Virus record (IMG/VR): IMGVR_UViG_3300045391_001696
Coordinates: 1 to 44,656 of that record
Source: a virus
Length of the DNA: 44,656 bases
Reading direction: 5' to 3' (one strand)
Shown here piece by piece: positions 7,158 through 44,656 of this stretch (its first letter is position 1; every line of letters starts with the position of its first letter). Below the pieces are notes generated by a model. It was not told the DNA's origin. It saw only the letters and a list, made by a program, of their open reading frames with translations, and made no database searches. Position numbers and translations under genes: made by a program.

Positions 7158-7427
7158 TTGGCAAGCAGGATAACCCCGTCTAAAGGCTCAAAGCCAGATA
7201 AGTTATGGCGAGATGCAATTGCCGTTGCGGTGCATAGGGCAATTAATGAGCAGGAAAAGAAAAACAATCTTGCTGCATTGGCGGAGAAGCTAGTTGAAAA
7301 AGGATTATCCGGCGATGTAATGGCGCTTAAGGAAATAGGCGACAGACTTGATGGCAAAGCTTCACAAGATATTAACGCAAAGCTCGCTGGAGCGGTTACT
7401 GTGAATGGCAAGGTAGAGTTTGTCTGA
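7158..7427 (+). CDS. terS: putative small terminase subunit (89 aa)
   Basis: Position immediately upstream of and overlapping terL. TTG start with AGGAG 6 nt upstream and an in-frame TAG just before. Motif ALKEIGDRLDGK is, from memory, seen in small phage DNA-binding/terS-like proteins. Confidence 0.5.
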   Translation: MASRITPSKGSKPDKLWRDAIAVAVHRAINEQEKKNNLAALAEKLVEKGLSGDVMALKEIGDRLDGKASQDINAKLAGAVTVNGKVEFV

Positions 7428-8766
7428 TTACGAGATAAACTTCAACGCCAAGATTCCCAAAGTATTTAAGAGCCTATTTAAGCCAAAACGCTATAAGATT
7501 TATTATGGCGGGCGAGGAGGAGCTAAATCATGGGGATTCGCAGATGCGTTGCTTATTATGGGCACACAGAAGCCATTACGCATATTATGCGCCCGTGAAC
7601 TACAGAAATCCATTGCCGACTCGGTACACAAGCTCCTAAGCGATCAGATAGATAAGCTTGGGCTGCACGAGTTCTACGAGATCCAAAAGACCACAATCCT
7701 TGGTATTAATGGCACCGAGTTCCTGTTCAATGGACTAAAGCATAATGCGCGTGAGATTAAATCCACTGAAGGCATTGATATATGCTGGGTGGAGGAGGCA
7801 GAAAACGTATCTGATGCAAGTTGGGAATTACTTATACCAACGGTACGTAAAGAGGGTTCTGAAATATGGATTAGCTTTAACACTAAACAGCCAACAGACG
7901 CCACATATCGGCGCTTTATATTTGAAGCCGATGATGATTCGATCATTCAAAAGGTATCTTATAAAGACAATCCGTTCTTTCCTGACGTTTTGGAACGAGA
8001 ACGATTAAGGCTTAAGGCCAAAGACCCTAAAGCCTATGAGCATGTATGGGAGGGTGAATTCGATACGCGTTTTTCTGGCGCTGTCTATGCCAAGTGGATG
8101 GCAGAGCTTAAGGATAAGGGGCGCATTACCGATAGGGTAAAACACGATCCTGATTACCCCGTATCGACGCTATGGGATTTGGGCTTTGGCGATACATGCA
8201 CACAATGGTTCTTCCAGGAGGGACCGGGTGAGGTGCTTATAATCGATTACTACGAGAACAATAACGAAGGTATTGGGCATTATTGCGAGATGCTGCAATC
8301 AAAGCCTTATAAATACCGCGCCCATTACGTGCCGCAAGACGCTGGCAAGAAGCTTATGGAAGCCAGCGGCAGATCAATCGTTGAGCAGGCTTGGCAAGAT
8401 TACAAAGTTAAGATGACGATTATCCCGGAGACAACCCACGCTAACCGGCATGAAGGATTGCGTAAGGTGCTTCCATATTGCTGGTTCAATAGCGACACAT
8501 GCGCTGCTGGCATTGAGTCGTTAATGGCATACCATTACGAATACGATGAGGATTTACAGATATTCAAGAAGATACCTGTGCATGACTGGTCAAGCCATGC
8601 TTCATCCGCCCTAGAGCTATTGCCAAGCGTGTGGAGAGGAAGAACGCCGATTACCGTAGAGGACATGAAAAACCAAGCCATACGTAACGAGTTCTTTAGA
8701 AAGCGCAGGAAGAATAAACTTGAACAGGAAGACCCATACAGGATTAAGCCGATGGGTAAGAGATGA
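7420..8766 (+). CDS. terL: terminase large subunit (PBSX/Terminase_3-like)
   Basis: Walker A YYGGRGGAKS, Walker B-like ICWVEEAE, and a C-terminal nuclease region. A TTG start is the only option in frame. Confidence 0.9.
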   Translation: MSDYEINFNAKIPKVFKSLFKPKRYKIYYGGRGGAKSWGFADALLIMGTQKPLRILCARELQKSIADSVHKLLSDQIDKLGLHEFYEIQKTTILGINGTEFLFNGLKHNAREIKSTEGIDICWVEEAENVSDASWELLIPTVRKEGSEIWISFNTKQPTDATYRRFIFEADDDSIIQKVSYKDNPFFPDVLERERLRLKAKDPKAYEHVWEGEFDTRFSGAVYAKWMAELKDKGRITDRVKHDPDYPVSTLWDLGFGDTCTQWFFQEGPGEVLIIDYYENNNEGIGHYCEMLQSKPYKYRAHYVPQDAGKKLMEASGRSIVEQAWQDYKVKMTIIPETTHANRHEGLRKVLPYCWFNSDTCAAGIESLMAYHYEYDEDLQIFKKIPVHDWSSHASSALELLPSVWRGRTPITVEDMKNQAIRNEFFRKRRKNKLEQEDPYRIKPMGKR

Positions 8767-9566
8767 ATATCTCCGTCTATGATACAGGCCACGAAATAGC
8801 CGATACCATTGCTAAATCATTAGTAATGGGTATGGAGCAAAATATTGAAGCTGATGTAGCGATTGGCTATGGGATATTACGTGGCATGGCTGCAAACTTA
8901 CGAAAGCATAAGTACTGGTTTGAACTAGACCGTGGCTACTTCAACCCAGGCCACTACGACGGATATTACCGAATAAGCTATAAAGGCACACAAGCTAGAT
9001 ATGATGCGGCATATCCCATCTCTAAACAATATGAGTGTGAGCTAAAGCCGACTAGACCATACGATAAATCAAAGCCAATATTAGTATGCCCACCCACTGA
9101 TGTTGTAATGCGGTTCTTTGGCCTGGATGATTGGCCATGCAGGGCTACAAGCAATTACGTAATACGCCATAAGGGTAATCCAAATCCCATCAATTGGGAT
9201 GATTATTCCGCATGCATAACATTTAACTCAAGTGTAGGCTGGCAGGCTTTAATAAATGGCATTCCATGTATCTCTGATCCACATCATTCTGTGGTGGGGT
9301 CATACTATAACCCACTAGGGGTAGATATTTCACTTGACGAATATGTAGAACTGTTTAATAATGTGCCTCGCAAACCTCTATTAGACTTTATGTCTTCGCA
9401 CCAGTTCACTCTGGCGGAGATCAGTAGAGGTGACGCATGCAGCTTGATAAATTACTACCTCTCAAACTATATATCGGCTGGGATTCAAGAGAAGCCGTTG
9501 CGGCAGATGTCTGTAAGCATTCCATCGCCAAACGCACTACAACGCCGCTTTCAATCGAATATCTGA
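8763..9566 (+). CDS. putative glycosyltransferase, possibly KpsS/KpsC (Capsule_synth)-like
   Basis: ATGA-coupled to terL. Segment RHKGNP...ITFNSSVGWQALINGIPCI resembles the HP...NStvGfEALl.GkPv core of Kdo-transferase-like capsule enzymes. The function call is tentative. Confidence 0.45.
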   Translation: MNISVYDTGHEIADTIAKSLVMGMEQNIEADVAIGYGILRGMAANLRKHKYWFELDRGYFNPGHYDGYYRISYKGTQARYDAAYPISKQYECELKPTRPYDKSKPILVCPPTDVVMRFFGLDDWPCRATSNYVIRHKGNPNPINWDDYSACITFNSSVGWQALINGIPCISDPHHSVVGSYYNPLGVDISLDEYVELFNNVPRKPLLDFMSSHQFTLAEISRGDACSLINYYLSNYISAGIQEKPLRQMSVSIPSPNALQRRFQSNI

Positions 9567-10255
9567 AGCACCGTGATTTACGCAAGCGCGGTTTATTCTC
9601 GCGTCCATGGATTACGCTTGGCGCATCCGGAAGCTGGATTGATCCAACGGATGAAAAGCCGTTCAGCACTGAATTTTCCCATACCAGATTCCTTGTGCCG
9701 GAGTTAATGCAGTACAAGGGATGGGCGCTATTCCTCGATAGTGACATGATATGCCTTACCGATATCGCCAAACTGTTTGCGCTTTGCGATGATAAATATG
9801 CCGTAATGTGCGTTAAGCACACGCATGTGCCGCCGCTTAATTCGCATAAGATGGATGGCCGTGAGCAATTACGTTATCGCCGCAAGAACTGGTCATCATT
9901 CGTGTTATGGAATTGCAGCCATCCAGCCAATGCCAGGATTACTAAGGAAGCCGTTGGATTCATGAGGGGAACGGATTTGCACGCCTTCTCATGGCTTACA
10001 GACGATCAGATAGGCGAATTGCCTCCGACATATAATTATATCGCTGGGGTTAGTCCCAAGCTTGCGCCTGAGCGCGGCGGTATTCCCGATGTTATCCATT
10101 ACACCGAGGGCGGCCCATGGTTTCCTGAATGCCAGGAAGTACCATATGCAGGCATGTGGATTCAGGAATACGAAGATATGCAATGCAACGGCGAGATGGT
10201 TATTTGCGATGTTCCCAGTATTGCCTATGAGAAAGAGGAGATCATTAGAAAATGA
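9437..10255 (+). CDS. GT8-like (GT-A fold) glycosyltransferase
   Basis: N-terminal LYIGWDSRE..., DxD motif FLDSDMI, later HYTEGGPWF. GAGG RBS before ATG 9437. Confidence 0.65.
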   Translation: MQLDKLLPLKLYIGWDSREAVAADVCKHSIAKRTTTPLSIEYLKHRDLRKRGLFSRPWITLGASGSWIDPTDEKPFSTEFSHTRFLVPELMQYKGWALFLDSDMICLTDIAKLFALCDDKYAVMCVKHTHVPPLNSHKMDGREQLRYRRKNWSSFVLWNCSHPANARITKEAVGFMRGTDLHAFSWLTDDQIGELPPTYNYIAGVSPKLAPERGGIPDVIHYTEGGPWFPECQEVPYAGMWIQEYEDMQCNGEMVICDVPSIAYEKEEIIRK

Positions 10256-10938
10256 CAATCGCTCTTCTTTGCCCAACGCGCTCTCGGCCAGAACAATGCA
10301 AGCGCATGATTGACTCATCTTATGCAACAGCAGACAAGATCAATGTTTATATCGGTCTGACAATAGGCGACACATCCACATACGAGATAGATCCTAAAAG
10401 GGGTGCTTATATCGCATCATTCCATGACGGTATTCCCACCGTACATAAATGGAATCTGCTTGCTGAGGAGGCATTGGCGAATCCCGATAATAAACTATTT
10501 ATGCTCGCATCCGATGACATTGTATTTACAACGCCATGTTGGGATAGGGCGCTTCTCGATCATTACAGTGGCCTAGAGAATAAAATTCATGTTTATGCGT
10601 TACAGGATAGCCGTGATCCTGAGGGCACTCCGCATCCCATCGTTACGCGTGAATATATTGAGGCGATGGGATTCTTCCTTCCACCACTATTCCTACACTG
10701 GTATTGCGATACATGGACGGTAACGATAGCCAGATCGAATCATTGTTTTACCCATCTTAAAGACTATCTGCTTGTGCATGATAAGCCATCCGATAAAGGG
10801 CAGGGCGATGCCACGCATAACCGCATTCGCCAAATGGGATGGAAAGAGCGCGACGGCTGGGTGCATGAAAACCAGCGCTATACCACGCTAGGATTTTATA
10901 GCCAGCAGCTGCGAACACATATGCGGGATGCAGCATGA
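10252..10938 (+). CDS. putative GT2-like glycosyltransferase
   Basis: N-terminal LLCPTRSRP and SDD motif (MLASDDIVF); ATGA-coupled on both sides. Confidence 0.55.
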   Translation: MTIALLCPTRSRPEQCKRMIDSSYATADKINVYIGLTIGDTSTYEIDPKRGAYIASFHDGIPTVHKWNLLAEEALANPDNKLFMLASDDIVFTTPCWDRALLDHYSGLENKIHVYALQDSRDPEGTPHPIVTREYIEAMGFFLPPLFLHWYCDTWTVTIARSNHCFTHLKDYLLVHDKPSDKGQGDATHNRIRQMGWKERDGWVHENQRYTTLGFYSQQLRTHMRDAA

Positions 10939-11927
10939 GAATATGGATAACCGGCATAGCGGGGTTCTTGGGGTCGCATCTGGCAGATGTATTGTTGGCG
11001 CAGGGTCATACTGTATCTGGTAATGATAGCATGATATGCGGAAACCCAAAGAACGTGAATAAGAAGCTTGCATATACCTATACCGATTGCCGTAGCTTTG
11101 AGCCGTTAAGCGCATTCATGCGCGAATTTAGGCCGGATGTAGTAGTCCATTGCGCTGCTACCGCCCATGAGGGATTAAGTTCATTCAGTCCATCATTTAT
11201 TACCAGGAATATCTACGAAGCGTCCGTAACGACATTCAGTGCCGCTATTGCAGCTGGTGTTAAACGCATTGTTTATATGTCAAGCATGAGCCGGTATGGC
11301 AATGGCGATCCCCCCTTTGCGGAAGATCATTGGCCAGGGCCAGTCGATCCATATGGCATAGCCAAGGTTGCCGCAGAAGAAACGCTTAAAATCCTTTGCA
11401 ATACACACGGAGTAAAATACGCGATTGCTGTCCCTCATAATATTATTGGCATACGCCAGCGCAGCAATGATCCTTATCGGAATGTTGCCGCAATTATGAT
11501 TAATCGCTGTAAGCAAGGCAAATCGCCGATCATCTATGGCGATGGCTCACAGAAGAGATGTTTCAGCCCCGTTGCCGATTGTCTGCCGTCCCTTATTAAG
11601 ATGGTAAATGGCGAAGCCGACGGCGAGATTGTCAATATCGGCCCAGATAATAGCGAAATAACCATCCTTGAGCTTGCCAATATTATCAAGCAGATCACGC
11701 ATTGCGATCAGGATATTATGTATATGCCAGGTCGTCCTAATGAGGTACATGACGCTTATTGCTCAAGCGATAAAGCCCGCAGATTGCTAGGTTATGAAAA
11801 GAAGCAAAGCCTTCGTATGTGCCTAGAAGAAATGGCTGAATATATCAGGCCGCAGCCCTTTGATTATGATTTCCCTATAGAAATTACTCAGGGTTGCCCC
11901 AAGACATGGATTGGGAGGCTGATGTGA
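10935..11927 (+). CDS. NAD-dependent nucleotide-sugar epimerase/dehydratase (extended SDR)
   Basis: Rossmann motif ITGIAGFLGSHL and catalytic PYGIAKVAAE (YxxxK). Confidence 0.85.
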   Translation: MRIWITGIAGFLGSHLADVLLAQGHTVSGNDSMICGNPKNVNKKLAYTYTDCRSFEPLSAFMREFRPDVVVHCAATAHEGLSSFSPSFITRNIYEASVTTFSAAIAAGVKRIVYMSSMSRYGNGDPPFAEDHWPGPVDPYGIAKVAAEETLKILCNTHGVKYAIAVPHNIIGIRQRSNDPYRNVAAIMINRCKQGKSPIIYGDGSQKRCFSPVADCLPSLIKMVNGEADGEIVNIGPDNSEITILELANIIKQITHCDQDIMYMPGRPNEVHDAYCSSDKARRLLGYEKKQSLRMCLEEMAEYIRPQPFDYDFPIEITQGCPKTWIGRLM

Positions 11928-12115
11928 AGTGCGCTTATAATAATTGCCGTAAGAAATTCAAGGCAATAAAAACCTTTTGCCCAAAGAAATATTGTTCGAG
12001 AAAATGTAAGCAGCTTTCTGCACGGCAACGAGCAATCAAGAAAAATCCAGAATATTATCGGGAGTTGCAAAGAAGATGGACTGCTGCATGGAAGGCAAAA
12101 AAATGCCAACCATAG
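11906..12115 (+). CDS. small basic zinc-ribbon-like protein
   Basis: Cys pattern C-x4-C...FCPKKYCSRKC. The start may instead be GTG 11924, which has a GGGAGG RBS and a GTGA overlap with the epimerase stop. Confidence 0.45.
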   Translation: MDWEADVKCAYNNCRKKFKAIKTFCPKKYCSRKCKQLSARQRAIKKNPEYYRELQRRWTAAWKAKKCQP

Positions 12116-12519
12116 CAATCTCCGGCGGTTTTGATCCTATACATGGCGGTCATATCGACCTGATCGACGAAGCATCCATCTATGGCGATGTCGTTGTTAT
12201 CCTCAATAGTGATGACTGGCTCACACGCAAGAAGGGTAAGCCATTTATGAAATGGGAGCACCGCGCAAAGGTAATGCGTAGTATTAAGGGAATTCTCAAT
12301 GTTATCCCCGTGGATGATTCAGATGGCACTGTATGTTCGGCGCTTCGGCAGTTAAAGCCTGATTATTTTGCCAACGGAGGTGACCGCACGAATGAGAATA
12401 CGCCAGAACTAAAAATATGCGCCGATTATGGCATTAAGCCTCTATTCGGCATAGGTGGCGATAAGACAGGTAGCAGCAGTGCCTTAATTAGGGGGGCCAT
12501 GCAGTTCCATGATTGGTAA
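12103..12519 (+). CDS. cytidylyltransferase-family sugar-phosphate nucleotidyltransferase (RfaE domain II/TagD-like)
   Basis: ISGGFDPIHGGHIDLI (HxGH motif) and overall RfaE-II-like layout; trimmed to ATG 12103 with GGAAGG RBS. Confidence 0.75.
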   Translation: MPTIAISGGFDPIHGGHIDLIDEASIYGDVVVILNSDDWLTRKKGKPFMKWEHRAKVMRSIKGILNVIPVDDSDGTVCSALRQLKPDYFANGGDRTNENTPELKICADYGIKPLFGIGGDKTGSSSALIRGAMQFHDW

Positions 12520-12793
12520 TCGTTTGGTATTTCGCACATGGGGTTGGTATCTGGTATTGCTTAACCGTAAGCGCTTCAAGGTGAAATTATTGCGCTTCAA
12601 CGGTAAGCGCAGGATGTCCCGCCAATATCATAAATTCAGGAATGAATTATGGCTGTTTCTTACAGGCGCGCATAAAGGCACTTGGCGCAAGCATCACAAG
12701 CGCAAGGAGCATACCTATACCGGGGATAAGGCATTGGTTATTGAAATCCAGTATGGCTCCAAATGCGAGGAGAGCGATATTGTCAGATTATGA
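12509..12793 (+). CDS. cupin-domain protein (type II phosphomannose-isomerase C-terminal-like)
   Basis: RTWGWYLVL...KVKLLRF...[20 protein letters not shown] resembles the RPWG...KvK.l.v.PG..lSlQ.H..R.E.W cupin core. Confidence 0.6.
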
Positions 12794-13473
12794 ATCCAAT
12801 ATGCATTATTCCGGCGCGCATGGCCTCTACACGACTGCCGGGAAAGCCGTTGATGGATATAGACGGAAAGCCAATGGTCGTGCGGGTGGCGGAACGTGCA
12901 ACAATAGGGATGAAAATGCTGCAATTTGACGAACTTTGGAAGAAGATAAACGAGCGCGGTTCAATCGTTACCGTGCAGGAATACCATGAGCTTAAGCATG
13001 TATTTAATCTCATGCAGGAAGCCGAATCTTATCTTGAAGTTGGAAGCGCCGAGGGCAATTCTTTGTATGTGCTTTCACACGCGCTAAAACCGGGCGGGCA
13101 TATCACCTATATTGATTGGGATGAGCCGCATACCAGAGAACCGCGCAAACAGGTTGTACAGGATATATGCGACAGGGGAATCAGCGTTATAGGCATACAT
13201 GCAGATAGCAATGACTTTATCTCCAAAGATCAGATTAAGGATTACAAATACGATATCGTTCTAATCGATGCCGGCCATGAAGATTTCAATGTAGCAATCG
13301 ATGCCATGCTGTATGGGCCTCTAGCTACGAAATATATCATATTCCATGACATCATGCTTCCTGACGTTGCCAGGGCGTTTAAATGGTACGCGGCACAAAG
13401 ACCGGATTGCAAGATGAGCATGTATGTCAATAGCCAGACATTTGGCTATGGAATTTTGGAGATAAAGCAATGA
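12790..13473 (+). CDS. fusion protein: about 40-aa KdsB (CMP-Kdo synthetase) N-terminal remnant joined to a class I SAM-dependent methyltransferase
   Basis: [37 protein letters not shown] matches only the KdsB N-terminus. It is followed by [10 protein letters not shown]...[13 protein letters not shown]-coupled to the cupin gene. An alternative methyltransferase-only start exists at 12910. Confidence 0.65.
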
Positions 13474-15188
13474 ATGATATAGCGGTAATTACAACATTTC
13501 CCAACAATTCATGGGAAATTTACGCCAAGAAGATGATTCAATCGTTTGTGGCTAACTGGCCGCAGGAAATACCGCTGTTGATACAGCTTGATGATGATTT
13601 GCTAGTGCGTGACGTACAAAAGCTATTGCGCCCGCAGGATGCCATTGCCGTGGGTTGGGAAGATGACCACAAAGCATTTGTAGAGCGCAATAAGGGTAAA
13701 GATGATCCACAGGACTACCGCAAGCAGGCCGTTAGATTCTGTCATAAGGTATTTGCGATTAGGCGTGCTTTAAAAGCCATTGAAGATGCCAAGGCTAATA
13801 ATGAACCGACAGCGCGTTACTTGATCTGGGTGGATGCCGATGTCATCACGCAGCGCAAGGTAACGCTTGATGAGGTGAGGGAATGTCTGCCCAAAGAAGG
13901 TGACGCCATTGCGTATCTTGGCCGTAAGGACTGGCCGCATAGCGAATGTGGTTGGCTGGCGTTTGACTTGGAAAATGGCGGCGATCTAGCTATTGCCAAT
14001 ATGTTTAATACCTATGTTTCTGAGGAGATTTTTAAACACACGCAAACTCATGACTCATGGATTTGGGATAGGTTGCGCGAGATTCAAGAAAATTCTGGGA
14101 TGAAATGGACAAACCTCACTGCCGATAAACCCGGTATGGACATCTGGCCGCATAGCCCAATGGGCAAATGGTCAACGCATTACAAGGGACCACAGGCCAA
14201 AGCCGATCTTGTCAATCTCGGTCAGCCAAGACAGCTCAACCAAAATGGCATGCAAAGCAATATTATTATTCAGACGCAAAACGCCATTCCTAACGAAGAA
14301 ATCCGCAAGAATATCGAAACTAACCAAACGCTTATCAATCATTGGATAAGGCCGTGCAAGCCAACAGATGAGGAAATTGTCGTGGTCTCGGCAGGGCCGA
14401 TGCTTATTGCCGAAGATGTGCGCCGGGAAAGGGGCAAGCGCATTGTAGCCGTAAAACATGCATTGGAACCGCTTAAGGCGGCTGGTATTAAGCCTTGGGC
14501 GTGTATATTGCTAGACCCGCGCGACCATGTAGCTAAGTTCGTTGATAATCCCGATAAAGATGTTATTTGGATCGTGGCAAGTCAGGTGCAACCGGAAGTC
14601 ACCAGAAAACTGATTGACGCCGGGTGTACGGTGTGGGGGTATCATGCCGCAGTGGCCGCCGGAGAGCAGGAGCTTACCAAAAAACAACAATATGCAGTAA
14701 TCAGCGGCGGAAGCGCTACTGCAACTCGTGGGCTGTATGTACTAAAGCATCTTGGTTTTAAGAACATGGTTTTATATGGTTATGATCTGTGTTTTGCCGA
14801 CCGGCAGGATCTTAACGCAAGGGATGAACGCGGTCAGCCTAAATATCTTGAGATGTCCATTGGGTTGCAGCACCCGCTTTACAGCATCAAGCGCTGCTTC
14901 TGGTCTGAGCCGCAGCTTATTGCCCAATTTGAAGAACTAAACGACATCATTAAAAACAATATCTTCAATCTAAGAGCATATGGCGATGGCATTATCCCCT
15001 TTGTTTTAAAGGCAAAGCAGACGGGTGAATTGCGAGAGAGTGAATTAAGGACTAAAATTAACGGTAAACGTTTACCCACATATGAGCAGCTATTGAAATG
15101 CAGCAGCAAGAAAAAGATGCTATCCTCAATGATGCGGCAGCTGAAGTGGCTGCTGAGCCCCCTGAAAACGATCAGGAACAGCAATTAA
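13470..15188 (+). CDS. two-domain protein (572 aa): N-terminal GT-A-like domain plus C-terminal DUF115/MptE/Maf-like Rossmann domain
   Basis: N-terminal domain: IWVDADV (DxD). C-terminal domain: VVVSAGPML...[29 protein letters not shown] resembles the DUF115 G-x-G-P-S-L...P-D-x-x-x-x-D core. Confidence 0.55.
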
Positions 15189-17293
15189 TTGATGGTCTGG
15201 CCCAATCTGAACTAGCCGGACGCGTTAAAAACGCTGCCGAGACCTACAATCTTGCCCAAGACATGGAAGATGGCCTGTTGCGGGAAATAGGCCAGGAATG
15301 CGCTAACGGGCTTAAGGATGACGATGAAAGCCGCGCCGAATGGCTTGATATGCATGCTTTCTGGCTGTCTCTTTATATGCAGCAGGATTATGCAGAAAAC
15401 TCCGATGCGGAGCGTTCATGGGGCGCAACCGAATCTGTCCCGATTCTTACTGAATCCTGTAATCAATTCCAGTCGCGCACATACAAAGCGTTTTTCCCTC
15501 AGGATAACTTCGTATCGGCAGTTCCGATGCGTAAAACCAGAGAGGATAGGGCGGTTCTTGAGGAACGCGCTAAACGCGTTGGCGATCATATGTCTTATCA
15601 GCTTGGTTATCTGGACCGCGCTTATAAACAGGATAAAGACGCGTTATTTCTCGGTGTACCTATTCACGGAAGCTTTTTCACCAAGACCTATTTCAGCGAT
15701 AGGTTAAAGCGTTTTAAAGTAGATAACGTTCGTCCTACAGATCTCGTTGTTAATTATAACGTAGGTCCTGTTCGTATCGAAGATGTGCGCCGCAAATCGC
15801 ATATGATCTATACGACCGTAGGAGAAACGGAAGAAGCCGTAAGGCGCGGTTTCCTTGTATCTCCATGCATTTCATCTATGCAGGATGGCAACAACGTGTA
15901 CAATATCAAGGTAGATGAATCGCAGGGATTAACCGAGCCCAATTCTTCCATTAAACGAGATCGTCCGGCTATCCTTGTCGAGCAGCACTTATATCTTGAT
16001 CTGGATGGTAACGGATTCCGCCCGTATATCGTGACGTTCGATCCTGCGCGTCGTAGCGTCAAGCGCATGACTATTGGCTATGAAGCAGATCAAATGGGTA
16101 ATCCGCTAAAAGATTACGAACAGACGCAGTATTTCACCCATTATAAATACCGAGAAAACCCTGACGGTTTCTATGGCTTCGGCTTAGGACAGGATATCGG
16201 TGATTTAAATGCCGCTATCAATATCATGCTCAGGCAGTCTATGGATGCCGCTACGCTTGCCAATGACGGCAATATGTCCGGCTTTATAAGCGAGCGCCTT
16301 GGCCTTGAGGGCGATGAAATTCGCATGGTGCTGGGTAAACTAACAAAGATACCCGATCAAGTGCAGGATATGGATTCCAGCATTATGATGATGAAATTCC
16401 CTGGCCCTAATGATGCTATGCTTAAAATCATGCAGGCTATGGATGAGCGCGCACAGCGCATGGCATCGACTACGGAAGCCACCACAGGAACCATGGATAA
16501 GGTCGTGCAGCCCACCACCTATCTGACGCAGGTTGAGCAGGCTCTTGAGCCCTTCAGCAGCGTCCAGATGCGCCTTGCATCATCAATGACCGATGAATTC
16601 CAGAAGATATACAAGATTAATCAGAAATACCTGCCACTGGTCGATTACTACATCGTTGATGGTGCGCCTGAAATGGTCACCCGCTCCGATTATGCCGATG
16701 ATATGCTCATTGCACCAATCTTCGATCCTAAATTCAGCACCCAATCACAGAAGGTAGCGCGTTCACAGGCAGTAGCCCAGGTAGTGATGGCTAACCCGCT
16801 TACCCAGACACGCCCACAGGTTATGGATGCAATTACTAAGAGGCAGCTTGAGGCGCTTGATATCGATAATATCGAAGAATTAGTACCAGAATTGCCGCCA
16901 CCAGCCAGAATTGACGACCAAAACCAAGAAAATATGTTATTTATGATGCCAAGCGGTTCCGCGCCTCCGTTTGATGTATTCCCCGACCAAAACCATGCCG
17001 AGCATTTGGCAAAACTGGAGCCATTCGTTAAAAGTGAAGGCGGAAAACTGATGCCAGACCAGCAGCAAGCCGTCTTAGCACACAAACAAAAGCATGAGGC
17101 ATTCCTATATGGACAAAAGCAAGGGCTCGTCCCACCGCCCAGACAGGTCGGAAATACATCATTGGACGCACGACAGGGTGACGAGATGGGTAATGGACAA
17201 CCTCAATCGGCAATTCCCAATCTGGCCGCCTTACTTGCCCCCCAAATCGCTGGAGCAGGCCCATCAGTCAGCGGGGCAGCAGCAAGTTCTTAA
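15098..17293 (+). CDS. portal protein (731 aa)
   Basis: Size, position in the head module, an acidic N-terminus and a Pro/Gln-rich C-terminal tail. The family was not identified by eye. Confidence 0.7.
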   Translation: MQQQEKDAILNDAAAEVAAEPPENDQEQQLIDGLAQSELAGRVKNAAETYNLAQDMEDGLLREIGQECANGLKDDDESRAEWLDMHAFWLSLYMQQDYAENSDAERSWGATESVPILTESCNQFQSRTYKAFFPQDNFVSAVPMRKTREDRAVLEERAKRVGDHMSYQLGYLDRAYKQDKDALFLGVPIHGSFFTKTYFSDRLKRFKVDNVRPTDLVVNYNVGPVRIEDVRRKSHMIYTTVGETEEAVRRGFLVSPCISSMQDGNNVYNIKVDESQGLTEPNSSIKRDRPAILVEQHLYLDLDGNGFRPYIVTFDPARRSVKRMTIGYEADQMGNPLKDYEQTQYFTHYKYRENPDGFYGFGLGQDIGDLNAAINIMLRQSMDAATLANDGNMSGFISERLGLEGDEIRMVLGKLTKIPDQVQDMDSSIMMMKFPGPNDAMLKIMQAMDERAQRMASTTEATTGTMDKVVQPTTYLTQVEQALEPFSSVQMRLASSMTDEFQKIYKINQKYLPLVDYYIVDGAPEMVTRSDYADDMLIAPIFDPKFSTQSQKVARSQAVAQVVMANPLTQTRPQVMDAITKRQLEALDIDNIEELVPELPPPARIDDQNQENMLFMMPSGSAPPFDVFPDQNHAEHLAKLEPFVKSEGGKLMPDQQQAVLAHKQKHEAFLYGQKQGLVPPPRQVGNTSLDARQGDEMGNGQPQSAIPNLAALLAPQIAGAGPSVSGAAASS

Positions 17294-18204: not shown

Positions 18205-18888
18205 ATGAGTAAAAGAGTCAGGTCTATTGCGCTTCCCGTTCTTGGTGGTATTGTTGGTGGTCCCATAGGCGCCGCCGCAGCGGCTGGGGTCAATAGCTAC
18301 ACACAAGATCACAATATAGGATCGGCATTAACATCGGCCGGATTGGCTGGGGCGGGTTCTTATATTGGCGGAAATCTTGGTGCATCCCTAGGCGGCCCTA
18401 CCTTGGCTGGCGGTTTAGAATCTGCGCTTGGGCCAGATCTCGGTTCTGCAATAGGACAATTAGCGGGTAGTTCTGCCTTAACCCCATTATCTGGATTGGC
18501 TGGTGGATTTGTTGGTAGCAATTTAGCCTCATCCCTTACAGCATCAAATTCTGTTCCCAAGGGAGCACCACTTGCCGCTCCTTATCAGCCTACCCAGCAG
18601 TCACAGCAAACCCTACCCCTTAGTCTTTCCACACTTGGCAGCCTGACAAATCAACAGCAGGCAAGCAACATCGCAACCGGCGGTGTTTACGGTGGGGGAG
18701 AGGGACCAGAAGAAAATAGTTATTTCCTCAATCTAATCAATCGCCGCCTGGTAGATCCTAGCGGCAATGTTGGAGATTTAAGCGAAATAAACCCGGTAGA
18801 AAATAGCTATTTAAATCAACTTGGCCTTGGCGGAGCAAAAGATTCAAGAAGTTTACTGGAGGCGATTAGTAAATACAAAGCAGCATAG
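18205..18888 (+). CDS. Gly/Ala/Ser-rich low-complexity protein (227 aa) with glycine-zipper-like segments
   Basis: ORF track. GxxxG-rich N-terminal two thirds, Gln-rich middle, ordinary C-terminus. Confidence 0.6.
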   Translation: MSKRVRSIALPVLGGIVGGPIGAAAAAGVNSYTQDHNIGSALTSAGLAGAGSYIGGNLGASLGGPTLAGGLESALGPDLGSAIGQLAGSSALTPLSGLAGGFVGSNLASSLTASNSVPKGAPLAAPYQPTQQSQQTLPLSLSTLGSLTNQQQASNIATGGVYGGGEGPEENSYFLNLINRRLVDPSGNVGDLSEINPVENSYLNQLGLGGAKDSRSLLEAISKYKAA

Positions 18889-18895
18889 GAGCAAT

Positions 18896-19234
18896 ATGAG
18901 CAAGTATAATCCCAAATTTGGTAGAGTTTTAATTGAGCGAGAAGTTACGAAAAAGACAACGGGCGGTATTATTATTCCCGATTCTGCATCTAAACGTAAT
19001 GCAAGCTGTATCGGCAAAATCATCGCATTAGGCGAAACCGCAGGCTGGACAGAAACATTCGATGAATCCGGCGATAGAATCGCCGTGCAAACCCTCAAAA
19101 TTGGCCAGACCGTAATCTTTGGCAGGCATTCTGGAGCTTGGCTGGATGCTACCTACGATAATAAGGGCGGCGAAAATGACGACGGAAGTTTATTCATCTG
19201 CCAAGACGCAGATATTTTAGCAACAGTGGAGTAG
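18896..19234 (+). CDS. groES: GroES/Cpn10-family co-chaperonin homologue
   Basis: FGRVLIEREVTKKTTGGIIIPDSA...GKIIALG...IGQTVIFGRHSG...DADILATVE aligns by eye with bacterial GroES; AGGAG RBS before ATG 18896. Confidence 0.8.
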   Translation: MSKYNPKFGRVLIEREVTKKTTGGIIIPDSASKRNASCIGKIIALGETAGWTETFDESGDRIAVQTLKIGQTVIFGRHSGAWLDATYDNKGGENDDGSLFICQDADILATVE

Positions 19235-22278: not shown

Positions 22279-22746
22279 ATGACTCGGTATACGGATAATA
22301 TCTATAGCGGCAATCAGGCTATAACTTCTGCTTTATCAAGTAAAAGTGCGGTTGTTCTTACTAAGGTGCATCGCATTGCTGGCGGCGCGGCCTCGACAAT
22401 CAGTGGCACGTTCCCGCAGGGGGCGCAGAACCTTGATGCTAAGCTTTATATCATGCTTAACGCATCAGCTACGGTCAGCGATAAGATCACTGTATCTGCC
22501 GCAGGTGTTGATCTGATTACGATCACGCAATTTGGTTCGGCTGCTGGTGTATTACGTCAGACCACAACGAGCCTTGGCGTTCTTACGGCTGTAGCATCTT
22601 CGTGTGGTTTGTTAACGGGGGCTGCTAATGCTGAACTGCCCTATGCCGTTACCTATGCAGCCAATACGCAGGCGACCGGCGCTGATTATCAGCTTGTTCT
22701 AACTTTCAATCGTGCCGATACCAACACGCTTGGAGTAACTGCGTAA
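22279..22746 (+). CDS. hypothetical virion protein (155 aa, Ala/Thr/Ser-rich)
   Basis: ORF track. Confidence 0.55.
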
Positions 22747-23432: not shown

Positions 23433-23735
23433 ATGGCAAGACGCGGAGGACGCAAGGGCGACTATCTAATTACAGATGATTATACTGGCTTTACGACCTA
23501 TTCCAGTAAGGTTCATCTCGATTTTTGGGGTGCTCTCGCCAAAAAACCGCTTCTTAGGAATTTACAGGAAATTGCATCTCCCTTAGCTGATCCCTATCCC
23601 GTCAATCCTTATCGTGGCCCTAATTATGAATCGGTAAATCCACTCACGACTACGGTTGCGCCCACCTTTGTTGGTAAGACCAATGTCAAAACTAGCCATG
23701 ATAACGCCGCCTTTGAAAGCGGGGCAGTAACATGA
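23433..23735 (+). CDS. hypothetical virion protein (100 aa)
   Basis: ORF track; ATGA overlap with the next gene. Confidence 0.5.
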   Translation: MARRGGRKGDYLITDDYTGFTTYSSKVHLDFWGALAKKPLLRNLQEIASPLADPYPVNPYRGPNYESVNPLTTTVAPTFVGKTNVKTSHDNAAFESGAVT

Positions 23736-24514
23736 CTACCTATAATAAAAATACCCTTAAAACATTTTTCCAGACCAATGACGTTCCGGACGGTAATGAT
23801 TATGCGAATTTAATTGATTCGCAGATCAATATTGTCGAAACGGCATCGCAATCAATGGCTGGGCCTCTAGTAACTACCGAGCTTGTCACGCCGCGTGTCA
23901 GCGCCACTGCCGGTATTTTTAGCAGTGTTTCAGCCGCTAGTATTAATGCCGCGGTATTAAATACCAGCCAAGGGATAGCGAGCCTTGGTCAGACGATAAT
24001 AGCCGGATCCGTTACTATAACGAGCGCCGTTACCATGGTTAATGCTGGCATTAGTATAGTAGGAAACGGAGATTTTAGTACAAGTGGTGGCTCGGTTCTT
24101 TGCAGCGCTTTAAATGTTGCTGGCGGCGCGCTTGTTTCGCGGAATACGGGCGGGCTATTTATAGGCGGAGACGTTTCTGCTAATAGCGCAAGTGTTTATT
24201 GTAGCGCGCTTCATATCAGTTCTGTTGGTATTGTAAGTGCTGCTGGAACAACACAGGGCGCTGCCGCTGTCTTAACCAATAGCATCAATCGATTACAGGG
24301 GATCAACGATGGGGCGCAAACTGGCTTTGCAATCCCCGCCAATAAAGTTGGTCTTGTCCAGTATATCGTCAATGAAACGGCGACCTCTGCAAATCTATGG
24401 CCGCCCACTGGCGGGACTATCAATAACCTCGGCGTTAATAACGTATTCGCGCTTGCCGGGGGTACTTCCTACACCATTTTCCACACAAGGGCTTCCGCCT
24501 ACGGGGTAAAATAA
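23732..24514 (+). CDS. putative tail fibre-like protein (260 aa)
   Basis: N-terminal FFQTNDVPDGNDYANLIDSQIN resembles the conserved tail-fibre N-terminal motif; Ser/Ala/Gly-rich beta-like remainder. Confidence 0.5.
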   Translation: MTTYNKNTLKTFFQTNDVPDGNDYANLIDSQINIVETASQSMAGPLVTTELVTPRVSATAGIFSSVSAASINAAVLNTSQGIASLGQTIIAGSVTITSAVTMVNAGISIVGNGDFSTSGGSVLCSALNVAGGALVSRNTGGLFIGGDVSANSASVYCSALHISSVGIVSAAGTTQGAAAVLTNSINRLQGINDGAQTGFAIPANKVGLVQYIVNETATSANLWPPTGGTINNLGVNNVFALAGGTSYTIFHTRASAYGVK

Positions 24515-37537: not shown

Positions 37538-38617
37538 CTATAACTTAGCATGCCTGCTCCTTTCAGCCGATTTTGCTTGTTTAGCACTCCGTTTGCCTTG
37601 TGACGATTTTGTGACGGTTCCCATAGCTTTATGCAGATCATCCGTCTTGAGAAACCAATAAGATTTCTCCGTTACTGCGATACTGTGATGCCCTAGTAAT
37701 TCCTTGAGGGTTTCAAGTTTGATATCGTCCTCACGGTAGCGCCAGCATGTGAAGGTGCGCCTTAGGTCGTGCAGGGTCACATTGGGTACTTTAGCCTCCT
37801 TGGCGGCCCTTTGAAGTGCCTTATTGAGCGTCTTAAATGGGATGCCCTTCTTATGCCAGAAAACCAAGTCTGTTTTAGTGTGACGAATTTGTGACTCTAG
37901 TATCGCAATGGCGCGTGCCCTCAAAGGAACAATACGGTCTTTATTAGCCTTAGTATTGATGACAGTCATTTCCCTCTTTTTTAGGTCAATCTGCTCCCAG
38001 CAAAGACTTATTAATTCCTCTGATCGCAGGCCGGTTTCAACGTCGAATTCGCACATATCGGCCTGAAGTTTACCAAGATGGGGAAGTATCTTCTCGAATT
38101 CCTTGCGGCTTAAATTGCGTGTCCTTGGCTGCCCCTCATCCATCTTCTTAATGGTAATCAAAGGATTATATTCAATCATATCCCTGTCGGCGGCGAAAGA
38201 GAATAGGGCGGACAGGTAAGAGCGATCTCGGTTTACTGAGCTTCCCGATACCTCCTTAGCCCTTGCATCCAGATACGCCACGATTTCAGCCTTTCCTATT
38301 TCACTGATAAGCTTGCCGGTAAAGTGTGCATCACAGGCATTCGCGCTAACTTCATAGCGAAGTACAGATTTAGGTTTGAGAACGATATCGCAATGCTCAA
38401 GGAATTTTTCCATAAGATCGTCATACAAAATATCTTCCTTAACCCCGTTACGTTTGCGCTTCAGGCGTTCGCGGGCATTGTCCCGCCATTCTCTCGCCTT
38501 TGTTGGCGACGTTTCCTTAGTAGATTCGTGGATTTTCCCGCCGCCAAGCTCAATCTTGCACCACCAGTACTTGCCCCTTTTATAGAGGTTGTCCATGTTC
38601 TTTGGCTTTGCTGGCAT
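37538..38617 (-). CDS. int: tyrosine recombinase (phage integrase)
   Basis: Arm-binding-type N-terminus LYKRGKYWWC; catalytic GLRSEE, HDLRRTF, LLGHHSIAVTEKSY. The stop codon is 3 nt from the tRNA fragment. Confidence 0.9.
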   Translation of the reverse strand: MPAKPKNMDNLYKRGKYWWCKIELGGGKIHESTKETSPTKAREWRDNARERLKRKRNGVKEDILYDDLMEKFLEHCDIVLKPKSVLRYEVSANACDAHFTGKLISEIGKAEIVAYLDARAKEVSGSSVNRDRSYLSALFSFAADRDMIEYNPLITIKKMDEGQPRTRNLSRKEFEKILPHLGKLQADMCEFDVETGLRSEELISLCWEQIDLKKREMTVINTKANKDRIVPLRARAIAILESQIRHTKTDLVFWHKKGIPFKTLNKALQRAAKEAKVPNVTLHDLRRTFTCWRYREDDIKLETLKELLGHHSIAVTEKSYWFLKTDDLHKAMGTVTKSSQGKRSAKQAKSAERSRHAKL

Positions 38618-43792: not shown

Positions 43793-44656
43793 CTATGCTG
43801 CTTCCTTAAGTTTCTCCGCGAACCGATCCGCGCCATATTGCCCCTTAACCAGCGCAGCAATCTGCTTTGCGGTATAGGTGTCATCTAGGCTCTTTCCGGT
43901 TGTCTCCACGAAATGACGGACACCCGCACCGCATGCACCAGTGACAGCACGGTAAATACTAATCCATTCCGTACCTGTAGCTTTTTTAGGAAGCTTGCCA
44001 TCGAACTTAGCAACGGCCTTATAGATTAAATCTTCACGCGCTTCCTTGATGGTCTTGCCATGCGCGGAATTGCCATTTTCTTCACTAACGACAAACAAGA
44101 TTTTTCCATCGTCGGTTTTGACTTTTTTCACACCCGCTTTATTGGAAATAACTCGAGAGAAAATACCGTCTGAGAAATCAACGGCTACCCATTTGCCACC
44201 CTCAACTATGTACCATTGGTCGGCTTTAAGTTTCTTTCCGTCTACAATGTCGGCTTTACCGCCTATAGGTATGCACTTACCGTCTTTTGCGATGTATTCA
44301 GAGGCCATTAAAAGATTCCCTTTATCACCCTTAACGGCGGCACGATAGCCCACGGCAGTACAGGCGCTATGTTCGCCAGACGATGCAGCCGTGCTGTAGT
44401 AGCCAGACGATGCAGCCGTGCTGTAGTTGCCAGACGATGCAGCCGTGCTGGAGTTGCCAGACGATGCAGCCGTGCTGTAGTGGCCAGACGATGCAGCCGT
44501 GCTGTAGTGGCCAGACGATGCAGCCTTGCTGGAGTCGCCAGACGATGCAGCCGTGCTGTAGTTGCCAGACGATGCAGCCTTGCTGTAGTTGCCAGACGAT
44601 GCAGCCGTGCTGGAGTCGCCAGACGATGCAGCCGTGCTGGAGTTGCCAGACGATGC
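43793..44656 (-). CDS. 3' part of the repeat-containing early protein: nonapeptide repeats followed by a 190-aa globular C-terminal domain of unknown function
   Basis: The frame of track ORF 43793-44353 stays open upstream to 44656, with the codon boundary at the window edge. The repeats read SG[NDYH][SY]S[TK]AAS. The track start is an internal GTG. Confidence 0.7.
   Translation of the reverse strand, partial: ASSGNSSTAASSGDSSTAASSGNYSKAASSGNYSTAASSGDSSKAASSGHYSTAASSGHYSTAASSGNSSTAASSGNYSTAASSGYYSTAASSGEHSACTAVGYRAAVKGDKGNLLMASEYIAKDGKCIPIGGKADIVDGKKLKADQWYIVEGGKWVAVDFSDGIFSRVISNKAGVKKVKTDDGKILFVVSEENGNSAHGKTIKEAREDLIYKAVAKFDGKLPKKATGTEWISIYRAVTGACGAGVRHFVETTGKSLDDTYTAKQIAALVKGQYGADRFAEKLKEAA
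44369..44656. repeat. 27-bp tandem repeat, 10 full units plus partial units; same family as 1-208
   Basis: Units begin at 44382 and recur every 27 nt to 44651; the last 60 nt equal positions 1-60. Confidence 0.95.

Follow-up and report, generated by a model that had tools for sequence, protein, structure and literature searches.

A phage gene joining a GT-A-like and a Maf-like glycosyltransferase domain between terminase and portal, a candidate for cytoplasmic protein glycosylation

The Maf (motility-associated factor) enzymes are flagellin nonulosonic-acid glycosyltransferases, and they have been shown to transfer 3-deoxy-D-manno-oct-2-ulosonic acid (Kdo) from host cytidine monophosphate-Kdo (CMP-Kdo) to Ser or Thr residues of flagellin (bioRxiv 10.1101/2020.06.03.131540; PMC11339370). 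The central Maf domain adopts a modified GT-A fold that is related to the GT42 sialyltransferase Cst-II (PMC11339370; bioRxiv 10.1101/2020.06.03.131540), and it is accompanied by a degenerate N-terminal Rossmann domain and a C-terminal helical or tetratricopeptide repeat (TPR) domain that recognizes flagellin (PMC11339370). Residues E324 and D415 are critical in the Maf of Magnetospirillum magneticum, and the equivalent residues are essential in the Maf enzymes of Clostridium botulinum (CbMaf) and Geobacillus kaustophilus (GkMaf) (bioRxiv 10.1101/2020.06.03.131540). In CbMaf these equivalents are D272 and D357. Activity also requires a conserved Ser, which is S334 in CbMaf and S356 in GkMaf. 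In Maf-1 and FlmG, the acceptor is recognized by a TPR domain. Here, these systems were compared with the product of a single phage gene, encoded in the IMG/VR virus record IMGVR_UViG_3300045391_001696. The whole stretch of 44,656 nucleotides that was analysed is referred to below as the window. From its sequence and predicted structure, the product of this two-domain gene is very probably a bifunctional glycosyltransferase in which a GT-A domain is followed by a domain of the Maf type.

Glycosyltransferases that act on virions have been described in other viruses. Mycobacteriophages encode glycosyltransferases that attach sugars to the subunits of the capsid and the tail tube (Freeman et al. 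2023, cited in PMC12619734), and essentially no other established case of O-glycosylation on phage virions was found. In the chlorovirus PBCV-1, the protein A064R is a fusion of two glycosyltransferases and a methyltransferase that builds the capsid glycans (PMC7826918).

The open reading frame (ORF) of the two-domain gene was confirmed as it had been described in an earlier sequence-only reading of the window. More than 540 full-length homologs with identities of 58–69% were obtained, mostly on contigs of 40–48 kb, and a search of 1.84 billion cluster representatives returned 1872 matches at E ≤ 1e-3. Because of these homologs, the frame is clearly a real gene under selection. An AlphaFold2 model was calculated with 52 homologs as input. 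The mean predicted local distance difference test (pLDDT) score is 89.7, and the model contains two domains that are joined by a disordered linker. At the position of this linker, relatives hold either a Methyltransf_24 domain or an insert of about 150 amino acids (aa). The coordinates of the domains, the motifs and the neighbouring genes are presented in Table 1.

The C-terminal half of the protein had been likened to the DUF115/Maf family, and this assignment was upheld at three levels. The Pfam model PF01973 (MptE-like, formerly DUF115, MAF_flag10) scores 67.9 bits over the core of the domain (E = 1.2e-18), where the gathering cutoff is 34.6, and the match spans model positions 4–170 of 171. 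The comparison with Maf and DUF115 structures that had been proposed was made using Foldseek. The best likeness of the C-terminal domain is 5mu5 from M. magneticum, the only solved Maf structure, with E = 4.1e-8 over 346 columns. A profile prepared from 22 diverse C-terminal domains was also searched against the PDB sequences. An E value of 1.7e-6 and a score of 30.6 bits were obtained for 5mu5, and a weak match (E = 0.02, 17.2 bits) appears for the archaeal MptE kinase 8sd5.

In the alignment of this profile to 5mu5, both catalytic acidic residues of Maf are matched by aspartates (Table 1). D349 is invariant in alignments A1 (the 52 homologs) and A6, and D439 is invariant in alignment A6. A nearly invariant Ser, S415, is found in a GGS motif. 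It is separated from D349 and D439 by 66 and 24 residues, respectively, which compares with 62 and 23 in CbMaf and 71 and 23 in GkMaf, the comparison being one of spacing only. Because the fold match, the profile score and both acidic residues agree, the C-terminal domain is regarded as a Maf-type transferase domain that looks catalytically intact.

The N-terminal half had been credited with a GT-A-like region containing the DxD motif VDADV, which is borne out by the predicted fold and by the conservation of the two aspartates. D122 and D124 are invariant in the 52 homologs of alignment A1, and at least 90% conserved in a divergent family of 27 sequences with identities of 22–58% (alignment A2). 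The motifs of this family include WxDAD, YLGR, SECG, WHDS and HxKG. Foldseek matches with E values from 1e-8 to 1e-6 were obtained in the PDB for LARGE1, bovine alpha-1,3-galactosyltransferase, the human ABO enzymes GTA and GTB, Bacteroides BoGT6a, XXYLT1 and glycogenin-2. The TM-score against BoGT6a (4ayl) is 0.64 when normalised to the phage protein, and a Foldseek probability of 1.00 was returned for many GT6 and GT8 structures, which places this half in the GT-A fold.

No corresponding family was recovered from the sequence of this half. The N-terminal 270 residues have no match to any Pfam (E ≤ 1), PHROG or NCBIfam family, no PDB sequence was matched using either the single sequence or the family profile, and no sequence membership in Pfam GT8 (PF01501) or in GT6 was detected. 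With hhalign, the family was aligned to the neighbouring GT8-like family at a probability of 4.8%, over the DxD region only, and the comparison with the family of c1, a small protein encoded upstream, was insignificant. The N-terminal domain is placed here by its predicted fold alone, the assignment at the sequence level having failed. It is best described as a predicted DxD-containing GT-A transferase that forms a family of its own, with its own motifs, and its stereochemistry would be retaining, as it is in the nearest structural neighbours.

The order of these modules was compared in a set of 77 related viral loci, the ORFs of which were clustered. Within the clade of phages of about 45 kb, the portal gene comes immediately after the gene for the C-terminal domain in 33 of 40 loci. 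The seven exceptions comprise five loci with reversed gene order, one with an ORF of 88 aa in between, and one with a short downstream ORF at the end of the contig. For the loci having enough upstream sequence, c1 is located upstream in 15 of 19 and a GT8-like gene in 16 of 19. The N- and C-terminal domains are genetically coupled in all of the arrangements encountered; they are fused in most loci and split into adjacent genes in two (L031 and L037). In the reversed-order loci (L059, L067, L068, L073 and L079), separate genes encode first the MptE-like protein (PF01973, E = 7e-17) and then the GT-A protein. The full order in L079 (7938–11083), which is also that of L067 and L073, is MptE-like, a small ORF, GT-A, Methyltransf_24 and GT8-like. 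In the 786-aa protein of L036, a Methyltransf_24 domain is fused between the N- and C-terminal domains. An additional 143 representatives of 50%-identity clusters were newly retrieved, and these are distributed as 70 N–C, 34 N–methyltransferase–C, 14 methyltransferase–C, 15 C alone and 10 N alone.

Because the same modules occur in fused, split and reordered arrangements, the working unit appears to consist of the GT-A domain, the methyltransferase and the Maf-like domain, with the methyltransferase being provided in the window by the overlapping gene upstream. In the reversed-order lineage, the module is located directly after the gene for the major head protein and before a tail protein gene, and represents a second, independent insertion into a virion-structural block. 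In a library of viral structures, all proteins with these architectures are unannotated and come from uncultured phages. In a collection of cultured phages, the sole match to the two-domain protein is the stand-alone gene for the N-terminal domain in Pelagibacter phage Mosig, which also has the GT8-like and c1 genes (Mosig_00185 to 00189). The fusion was not found when the genomes of 185,579 bacterial and archaeal species were scanned twice by pattern; these scans required exact peptide patterns and are weak evidence of absence.

A profile search with the N-terminal domain did return proteins of 420–480 aa in which this domain is fused to Methyltransf_24. Some of them are encoded on contigs of up to 999 kb and therefore on bacterial chromosomes. 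Six bacterial contexts of this fusion were examined. In a Steroidobacteraceae metagenome-assembled genome (L081), the fusion is part of a flagellar cluster, with flgK/flgL on one side and the flagellin gene (fliC) on the other, and it adjoins the gene for a TPR protein. The position between flgL and flagellin is the classical site of the flagellin glycosylation islands in Pseudomonas. In two further contexts (L085/L086 and L089/L090), the fusion is found beside a type IV pilin gene and genes for large TPR proteins, and one of these pilin contexts also holds a PglL/Wzy_C-type oligosaccharyltransferase and a DegT sugar aminotransferase. Flagellin and pilin are both well known to be O-glycosylated.

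In these three filament loci, an adjacent gene encodes a protein of 223–238 aa that is a homolog of the phage GT8-like protein, with identities of 55–57% to Mosig_00188 and 39–41% to the product of window positions 9437–10255. Because of this shared neighbour, the GT8-like and GT-A genes, with or without the methyltransferase, are regarded as one conserved module, which is exchanged between the head operons of phages and the filament loci of bacteria. The bacterial pair of GT-A–methyltransferase and GT8-like proteins is a candidate for an uncharacterised system of filament glycosylation.

In the window, the two-domain gene comes after seven other cassette genes and is the last gene of a block that is inserted between the genes for the large terminase subunit and the portal. 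Start and stop codons overlap by 4 nucleotides (nt) at the junctions of terminase with c1, of the GT8-like gene with c29, of c29 with the gene for the short-chain dehydrogenase/reductase (SDR), and of the methyltransferase with the two-domain gene. From these overlaps, the cassette appears to be translationally coupled into the terminase–portal operon. At the other end, the last 91 nt of the two-domain gene are shared with the longest possible portal ORF, and the real portal start may therefore be located further downstream. None of the cassette proteins contains a transmembrane-like segment. The most widespread partner is c1, which is present in 49 loci, and the GT8-like gene is present in 47. 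The genes for the cupin and the nucleotidyltransferase travel together in about 15 loci. For the methyltransferase, the likely true start is at either 12910 or 12916.

Table 1. Positions of the two-domain glycosyltransferase gene, its domains and motifs, and the surrounding cassette in the window
Feature	Position (nt)	Strand	Evidence or remark
Large terminase subunit, upstream boundary of the cassette	7420–8766	+	Pfam Terminase_3, E = 9e-44
c1, small beta-Kdo-transferase-like protein, 267 aa	8763–9566	+	AlphaFold and Foldseek
GT8-like glycosyltransferase, conserved partner of the N-terminal domain family	9437–10255	+	Pfam GT8, E = 4e-7
Conserved cassette protein, cluster c29	10252–10938	+	No family match; in 11 loci
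SDR nucleotide-sugar epimerase/dehydratase	10935–11927	+	Pfam, PHROG and NCBIfam matches
HldE-domain-II/TagD-like cytidylyl/adenylyltransferase, predicted to activate a sugar or polyol phosphate	12076–12519	+	Pfam, PHROG and NCBIfam
Small cupin, mannose-6-phosphate isomerase C-terminal type	12509–12793	+	Pfam
Methyltransf_24 (TylF-like) methyltransferase	12763–13473	+	Pfam; 4-nt overlap with the start of the two-domain gene
Putative remnant of the kdsB N-terminus, 40 codons, in frame with the methyltransferase	12784–12903	+	NCBIfam KdsB, Pfam CTP_transf_3
Two-domain glycosyltransferase gene	13470–15188	+	ATG to stop, 572 aa
GT-A domain, aa 1–250, GT6/GT8-like fold, predicted retaining	13470–14219	+	Foldseek against the PDB
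DxD motif, D122-A123-D124	13833–13841	+	Alignments A1 and A2
Interdomain linker, aa 251–262	14220–14255	+	Disordered, pLDDT < 50
Maf-like domain, aa 266–559	14265–15146	+	PF01973, Foldseek, and profile against PDB sequences
Pfam MptE-like core, aa 279–444	14304–14801	+	PF01973
D349, LLDPR motif, equivalent to Maf E324	14514–14516	+	Profile alignment to 5mu5
D439, LYGYD motif, equivalent to Maf D415	14784–14786	+	Profile alignment to 5mu5
Portal protein, downstream boundary of the cassette	15098–17293	+	PHROG portal, Pfam SU10_portal

Several further features of the cassette were noted. The ORFs of c1 and the GT8-like protein share 130 nt (9437–9566) in different frames; the GT8-like ORF has no alternative start within its first 60 codons, and its homologs align from residue 9 on. 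Large contigs of T4-like phages hold up to five c1 paralogs per locus. Only one intergenic gap of the cassette is sizeable (148 nt), and it is occupied by an ORF at 11894–12115 for a Cys- and Lys-rich protein of 73 aa, of the CxxC type and possibly a zinc ribbon. A gene for a GroES/Cpn10-like co-chaperonin (18821–19234, likely start 18896) is located between the portal and capsid genes and is kept in 18 related loci. In the scan for promoter- and terminator-like sequences, fewer matches were obtained than in shuffled sequence; one sigma-70-like match is inside the cassette at 9334–9362. An independent "moron" transcription unit was considered and set aside, the matches being below the shuffled level, a result that is uninformative and not decisive. 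A role in anti-phage defence was also considered and rejected, as no meaningful PADLOC matches were obtained.

The content of the cassette differs between phages. A methyltransferase and a 2-oxoglutarate/Fe(II) oxygenase, encoded as a 458-aa fusion or as two genes, replace the nucleotidyltransferase and the cupin in L028 (6616–7992) and L011 (5317–6685). Other cassettes are extended by a gene for a GT17-like protein, for a pyruvyl transferase, for a radical SAM/SPASM enzyme or for a histidine phosphatase. These exchanges of cassette genes suggest a diversification of the glycan between phages.

The phage itself has a genome of 44.7 kb that encodes a tyrosine integrase (37538–38617), a CI-like repressor, a Rad52-type recombinase and RusA. 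It is regarded as temperate because of the integrase and the repressor. The two ends of the contig overlap exactly over 60 nt, inside a nonapeptide repeat, and the assembly is therefore probably circular, with a repeat number that may be collapsed. This repeat belongs to a gene on the minus strand (43793–44656 and 1 to about 330) that spans the contig ends and contains about 20 tandem nonapeptides (AASSGxxST). The portal and capsid proteins are 22–35% identical to those of cultured phages, namely Pelagibacter phages HTVC023P/027P, Roseobacter phages CRP-901/902, and Alcaligenes and Caulobacter phages. Among cultured phages, the nearest relatives have hosts in the Proteobacteria and the cyanobacteria.

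Clues to the donor substrate of the C-terminal domain are provided by traces of kdsB. Residues 8–47 encoded by ORF 12763–13473 match the NCBIfam models of KdsB (CMP-Kdo synthetase) with 46–52 bits. Because the homologs of the methyltransferase begin about 50 residues after the start of this ORF, the fragment looks like what is left of a kdsB gene after its deletion. Among about 80 loci, only this phage has it. The start assigned to the methyltransferase by gene callers is 12790, so that the protein may carry the fragment as an extension of its N-terminus. In L031, a full-length KdsB is encoded directly after the portal gene and scores 299.4 bits against an equivalog cutoff of 281.

A second enzyme that could use Kdo is c1. 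This protein has no family match in the sequence libraries, and its AlphaFold model has a pLDDT of 86.8. The top Foldseek matches are exclusively the beta-Kdo transferases WbbB, KpsC and KrkA, with a best E value of 1.4e-4 and TM-scores of 0.26–0.36. The sequence profile of c1 matches 5fa0 weakly (E = 0.08). CMP-Kdo is tentatively put forward as the donor for the C-terminal domain, with clearly less than an even chance of being correct. The sequence-only reading had mentioned CMP-activated nonulosonic acids as the sugars that Maf proteins attach. The CMP-activated acid sugar is retained in the present proposal, but it is not necessarily a nonulosonic acid, and the evidence at hand points to Kdo.

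In the proposed pathway, the two-domain protein would be a soluble cytoplasmic enzyme. The cassette is coupled into the terminase–portal–capsid operon, and the enzyme would therefore be made late in infection, together with the head proteins. The metal-dependent GT-A domain would use its DxD motif in the addition of a sugar from a nucleoside diphosphate donor, which is possibly a product of the nucleotidyltransferase, cupin and SDR enzymes of the cassette. A sugar would be O-methylated by the upstream methyltransferase. The Maf/Cst-II-type C-terminal domain would then add a CMP-activated 2-keto-3-deoxy acid sugar, for which Kdo from the host pool is favoured, and the ancestral cassette probably raised the CMP-Kdo pool of the host through a KdsB of its own. 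Further residues would be added by the GT8-like and c1 enzymes. The product would be a short, partly methylated glycan that bears an acid sugar and is attached directly to protein, most likely to a virion protein that receives its sugars in the cytoplasm while the head is being assembled or earlier. The analysis establishes the folds of the domains, the conservation of the catalytic residues, the genetic coupling of the modules and their genomic contexts. The donors, the order of the reactions, the linkage to Ser or Thr, and the identity of the acceptor are what we infer in this pathway.

The acceptor is somewhat more probably a protein than another molecule. A virion protein is favoured because the cassette is coupled into the late operon, and for this narrower assignment the chances are judged to be just short of even. 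The pathway taken as a whole, in which a bifunctional cytoplasmic enzyme builds a short glycan on a protein that is probably part of the virion, is considered to be evenly balanced between right and wrong. The description of the gene product as a candidate protein O-glycosyltransferase had been made before, and it gains circumstantial support from the bacterial filament loci and from the placement among head genes, but several features that define Maf are absent. The acceptors that had been suggested at the same time are indeed rich in Ser, Thr, Ala and Gly. The Ser/Thr content is 22–23% for the products of 22279–22746 and 23732–24514 and for the repeat protein, and 17% for that of 18205–18888. 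Nothing ties these proteins to the enzyme, however, and the list was rejected as support since composition alone cannot link an ORF to an enzyme. The nonapeptide-repeat candidate is, in addition, encoded on the minus strand and outside the late operon.

A number of observations weigh against the pathway outlined above. The substrates are all a matter of inference. In the two-domain model, the orientation of the domains relative to each other is not confidently predicted (predicted TM-score of 0.54). The essential Ser of Maf has no clean alignment, S389 of 5mu5 being aligned two positions away from S415. A full KdsB is found in only one of about 80 loci, and because c1 resembles the beta-Kdo transferases, the kdsB traces are ambiguous and could belong with c1, with the Maf-like domain, or with the two together. 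The module of the N-terminal domain is located outside the structural region in T4-like phages of the Kyanoviridae, such as Mosig. Three of the six bacterial contexts have no filament gene nearby, and the filament loci lack a Maf-like domain, such that they support the GT-A/GT8-like module and not the C-terminal domain. Finally, the temperate lifestyle of the phage makes a modification of the host surface a realistic alternative.

According to this alternative, which we consider unlikely but the most serious of those weighed, the same enzymes glycosylate the flagellin, type IV pilin or another surface protein of the host and thereby mask the receptor and exclude competing phages, or prevent the progeny from adhering to debris. 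Beyond the temperate lifestyle, it draws on the homologs of the GT-A–methyltransferase fusion and of the GT8-like gene beside bacterial flagellin and pilin genes, on the action of Maf enzymes on flagellin, and on the sigma-70-like match within the cassette. Pilin glycosylation is known to block pilus-specific phages (PMC11841053, which cites Harvey et al. 2018). The genomic position of the cassette argues the other way. It is coupled into the late operon, with promoter-like matches fewer than in shuffled sequence, and its distance from the integrase gene is about 22 kb, although genes for lysogenic conversion are usually found near the attachment site. The module is found inside head-gene blocks in two lineages, and also occurs in T4-like phages of the Mosig type, which we take to be lytic. 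In addition, the window encodes no TPR protein or known filament-binding adaptor.

A slightly less probable alternative is that the cassette acts on the cytoplasmic side of the membrane and remodels a lipid-linked glycan of the host (lipopolysaccharide core, O-antigen or capsule), to which Kdo-type residues would be added by the Maf-like and beta-Kdo-transferase-like modules. WbbB, KpsC and KrkA, the closest structural relatives of c1, act on lipid-linked polysaccharides. The nucleotide-sugar enzymes of the cassette are typical of O-antigen clusters, and related loci hold a pyruvyl transferase and FkbM-type methyltransferases that are common in polysaccharide clusters. Some DUF115 proteins also transfer nonulosonic acids to glycans and not to proteins. 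Against this, an initiating phosphoglycosyl transferase, a flippase, a polymerase and an ABC exporter are all absent, the cassette proteins have no membrane segment, and the cassette occupies a late-operon position. The bacterial counterparts are located in flagellin and pilin loci and not in those for O-antigen or capsule.

Glycosylation of hypermodified bases in the phage DNA as a protection against restriction is very improbable and was rejected: phage GT-A and GT-B enzymes that glycosylate bases of the 5-hydroxymethylcytosine type are well documented, but these are JGT/TarP-like or T4-BGT-like and adjoin genes for C5-methyltransferase/5mYOX or thymidylate-synthase-like proteins, whereas the scan of the window returned only an N6/N4 methylase far from the cassette and nothing that would synthesize hydroxymethyl-pyrimidines, methylate C5 or carry out a TET-type oxidation, the closest folds are the protein- and glycan-directed GT6/GT8 and Maf enzymes, and the bacterial homologs are in filament loci. 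It is equally improbable that the C-terminal domain is an MptE-type pyrophosphokinase or another nucleotide-binding enzyme and that the N-terminal domain alone transfers sugar; the Pfam family is named after the archaeal 6-hydroxymethylpterin diphosphokinase and 8sd5 is weakly matched, but this identity was rejected on the higher Maf score, the conserved catalytic acidic residues, the glycosyltransferases and sugar-type methyltransferase to which the domain is fused or adjacent in every architecture seen, and the lack of a folate-pathway context.

Both of the domain types that are joined in the two-domain protein are already known, and nothing relevant was found in the literature on DUF115 in phages. 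In the literature searched, the GT-A/(methyltransferase)/Maf-like architecture, its restriction to head operons, and its link to flagellin and pilin islands appear to be undescribed. The wider claim, which is put forward as rather doubtful, is that this would be the first phage-encoded Maf-type transferase and the core of an unrecognised cytoplasmic pathway for virion O-glycosylation, widespread in aquatic phages, in which Kdo-like sugars and methylated hexoses are used for capping and the GT-A/GT8-like half is shared with bacterial filament islands. If this were true, modules for protein glycosylation would be exchanged between phage heads and bacterial filaments, and sugar-coated virions would be common among uncultured aquatic phages, with a bearing on receptor binding, virion stability, grazing and immune recognition. 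The Maf class would be extended beyond flagella in a new, compact architecture, with the GT-A, methyltransferase and Maf-like modules in one or two polypeptides, and such an enzyme could serve protein glyco-engineering with Kdo or sialic-acid-like sugars.

The comparison with described systems is summarised as follows. WbbB (GT99), KpsC/KpsS (GT107) and KrkA use CMP-Kdo, and their likeness is to c1 and not to the two-domain protein, the C-terminal domain of which has a different fold. Their acceptors are lipid-linked polysaccharides, and they are longer than c1 by about 130 aa. In WbbB, too, several domains are combined, a Kdo transferase being joined to another glycosyltransferase. The retaining enzymes of GT6 and GT8 share the GT-A fold, the DxD motif and a conserved C-terminal HxKG motif with the N-terminal domain, which has no detectable sequence membership in either family.

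Among viral systems, the glycosylation of mycobacteriophage virions takes place in actinobacterial hosts and is catalyzed by ordinary glycosyltransferases without Maf-like or Kdo-type modules. The chlorovirus proteins A064R and A111/114R are virus-encoded, soluble multidomain enzymes that are independent of the glycosylation machinery of the host (PMC7826918). The two glycosyltransferase activities and the sugar methyltransferase of A064R follow a logic analogous to that of the phage N–methyltransferase–C triple fusions. The chlorovirus enzymes act in eukaryotic algal hosts on N-linked glycans, include rhamnosyltransferases and have no Maf-like domain, and the likeness is one of analogy and not of demonstrated homology. 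An unnamed viral protein of 638 aa (M1IF74), the same length as chlorovirus A064R, appears among the BFVD matches at rank 50 with E = 2.5e-5 and is regarded as a lead only.

The closest likeness of the C-terminal domain is to Maf, although the two-domain protein is not a canonical Maf. It is phage-encoded and adjoins a portal gene, it lacks the degenerate Rossmann N-terminus and the helical or TPR acceptor-binding C-terminus, and it carries a functional-looking GT-A domain in front. The full-length NCBIfam model for the related flagellin-modification protein PseD is aligned locally only, at 27 bits against a cutoff of 670. No flagellin gene or NeuB/PseI-type synthase was found among the scanned ORFs of the window or the scanned representatives of the related loci, and the locus is also without GlfM and the genes for nonulosonic acid synthesis. 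Common to both are the central PF01973 domain with its Cst-II-like fold and the two essential acidic residues, which are kept as D349 and D439. Maf is a soluble cytoplasmic enzyme, as the two-domain protein is predicted to be, and its documented promiscuity toward Kdo and N-acetylneuraminic acid fits the traces of kdsB in the phage.

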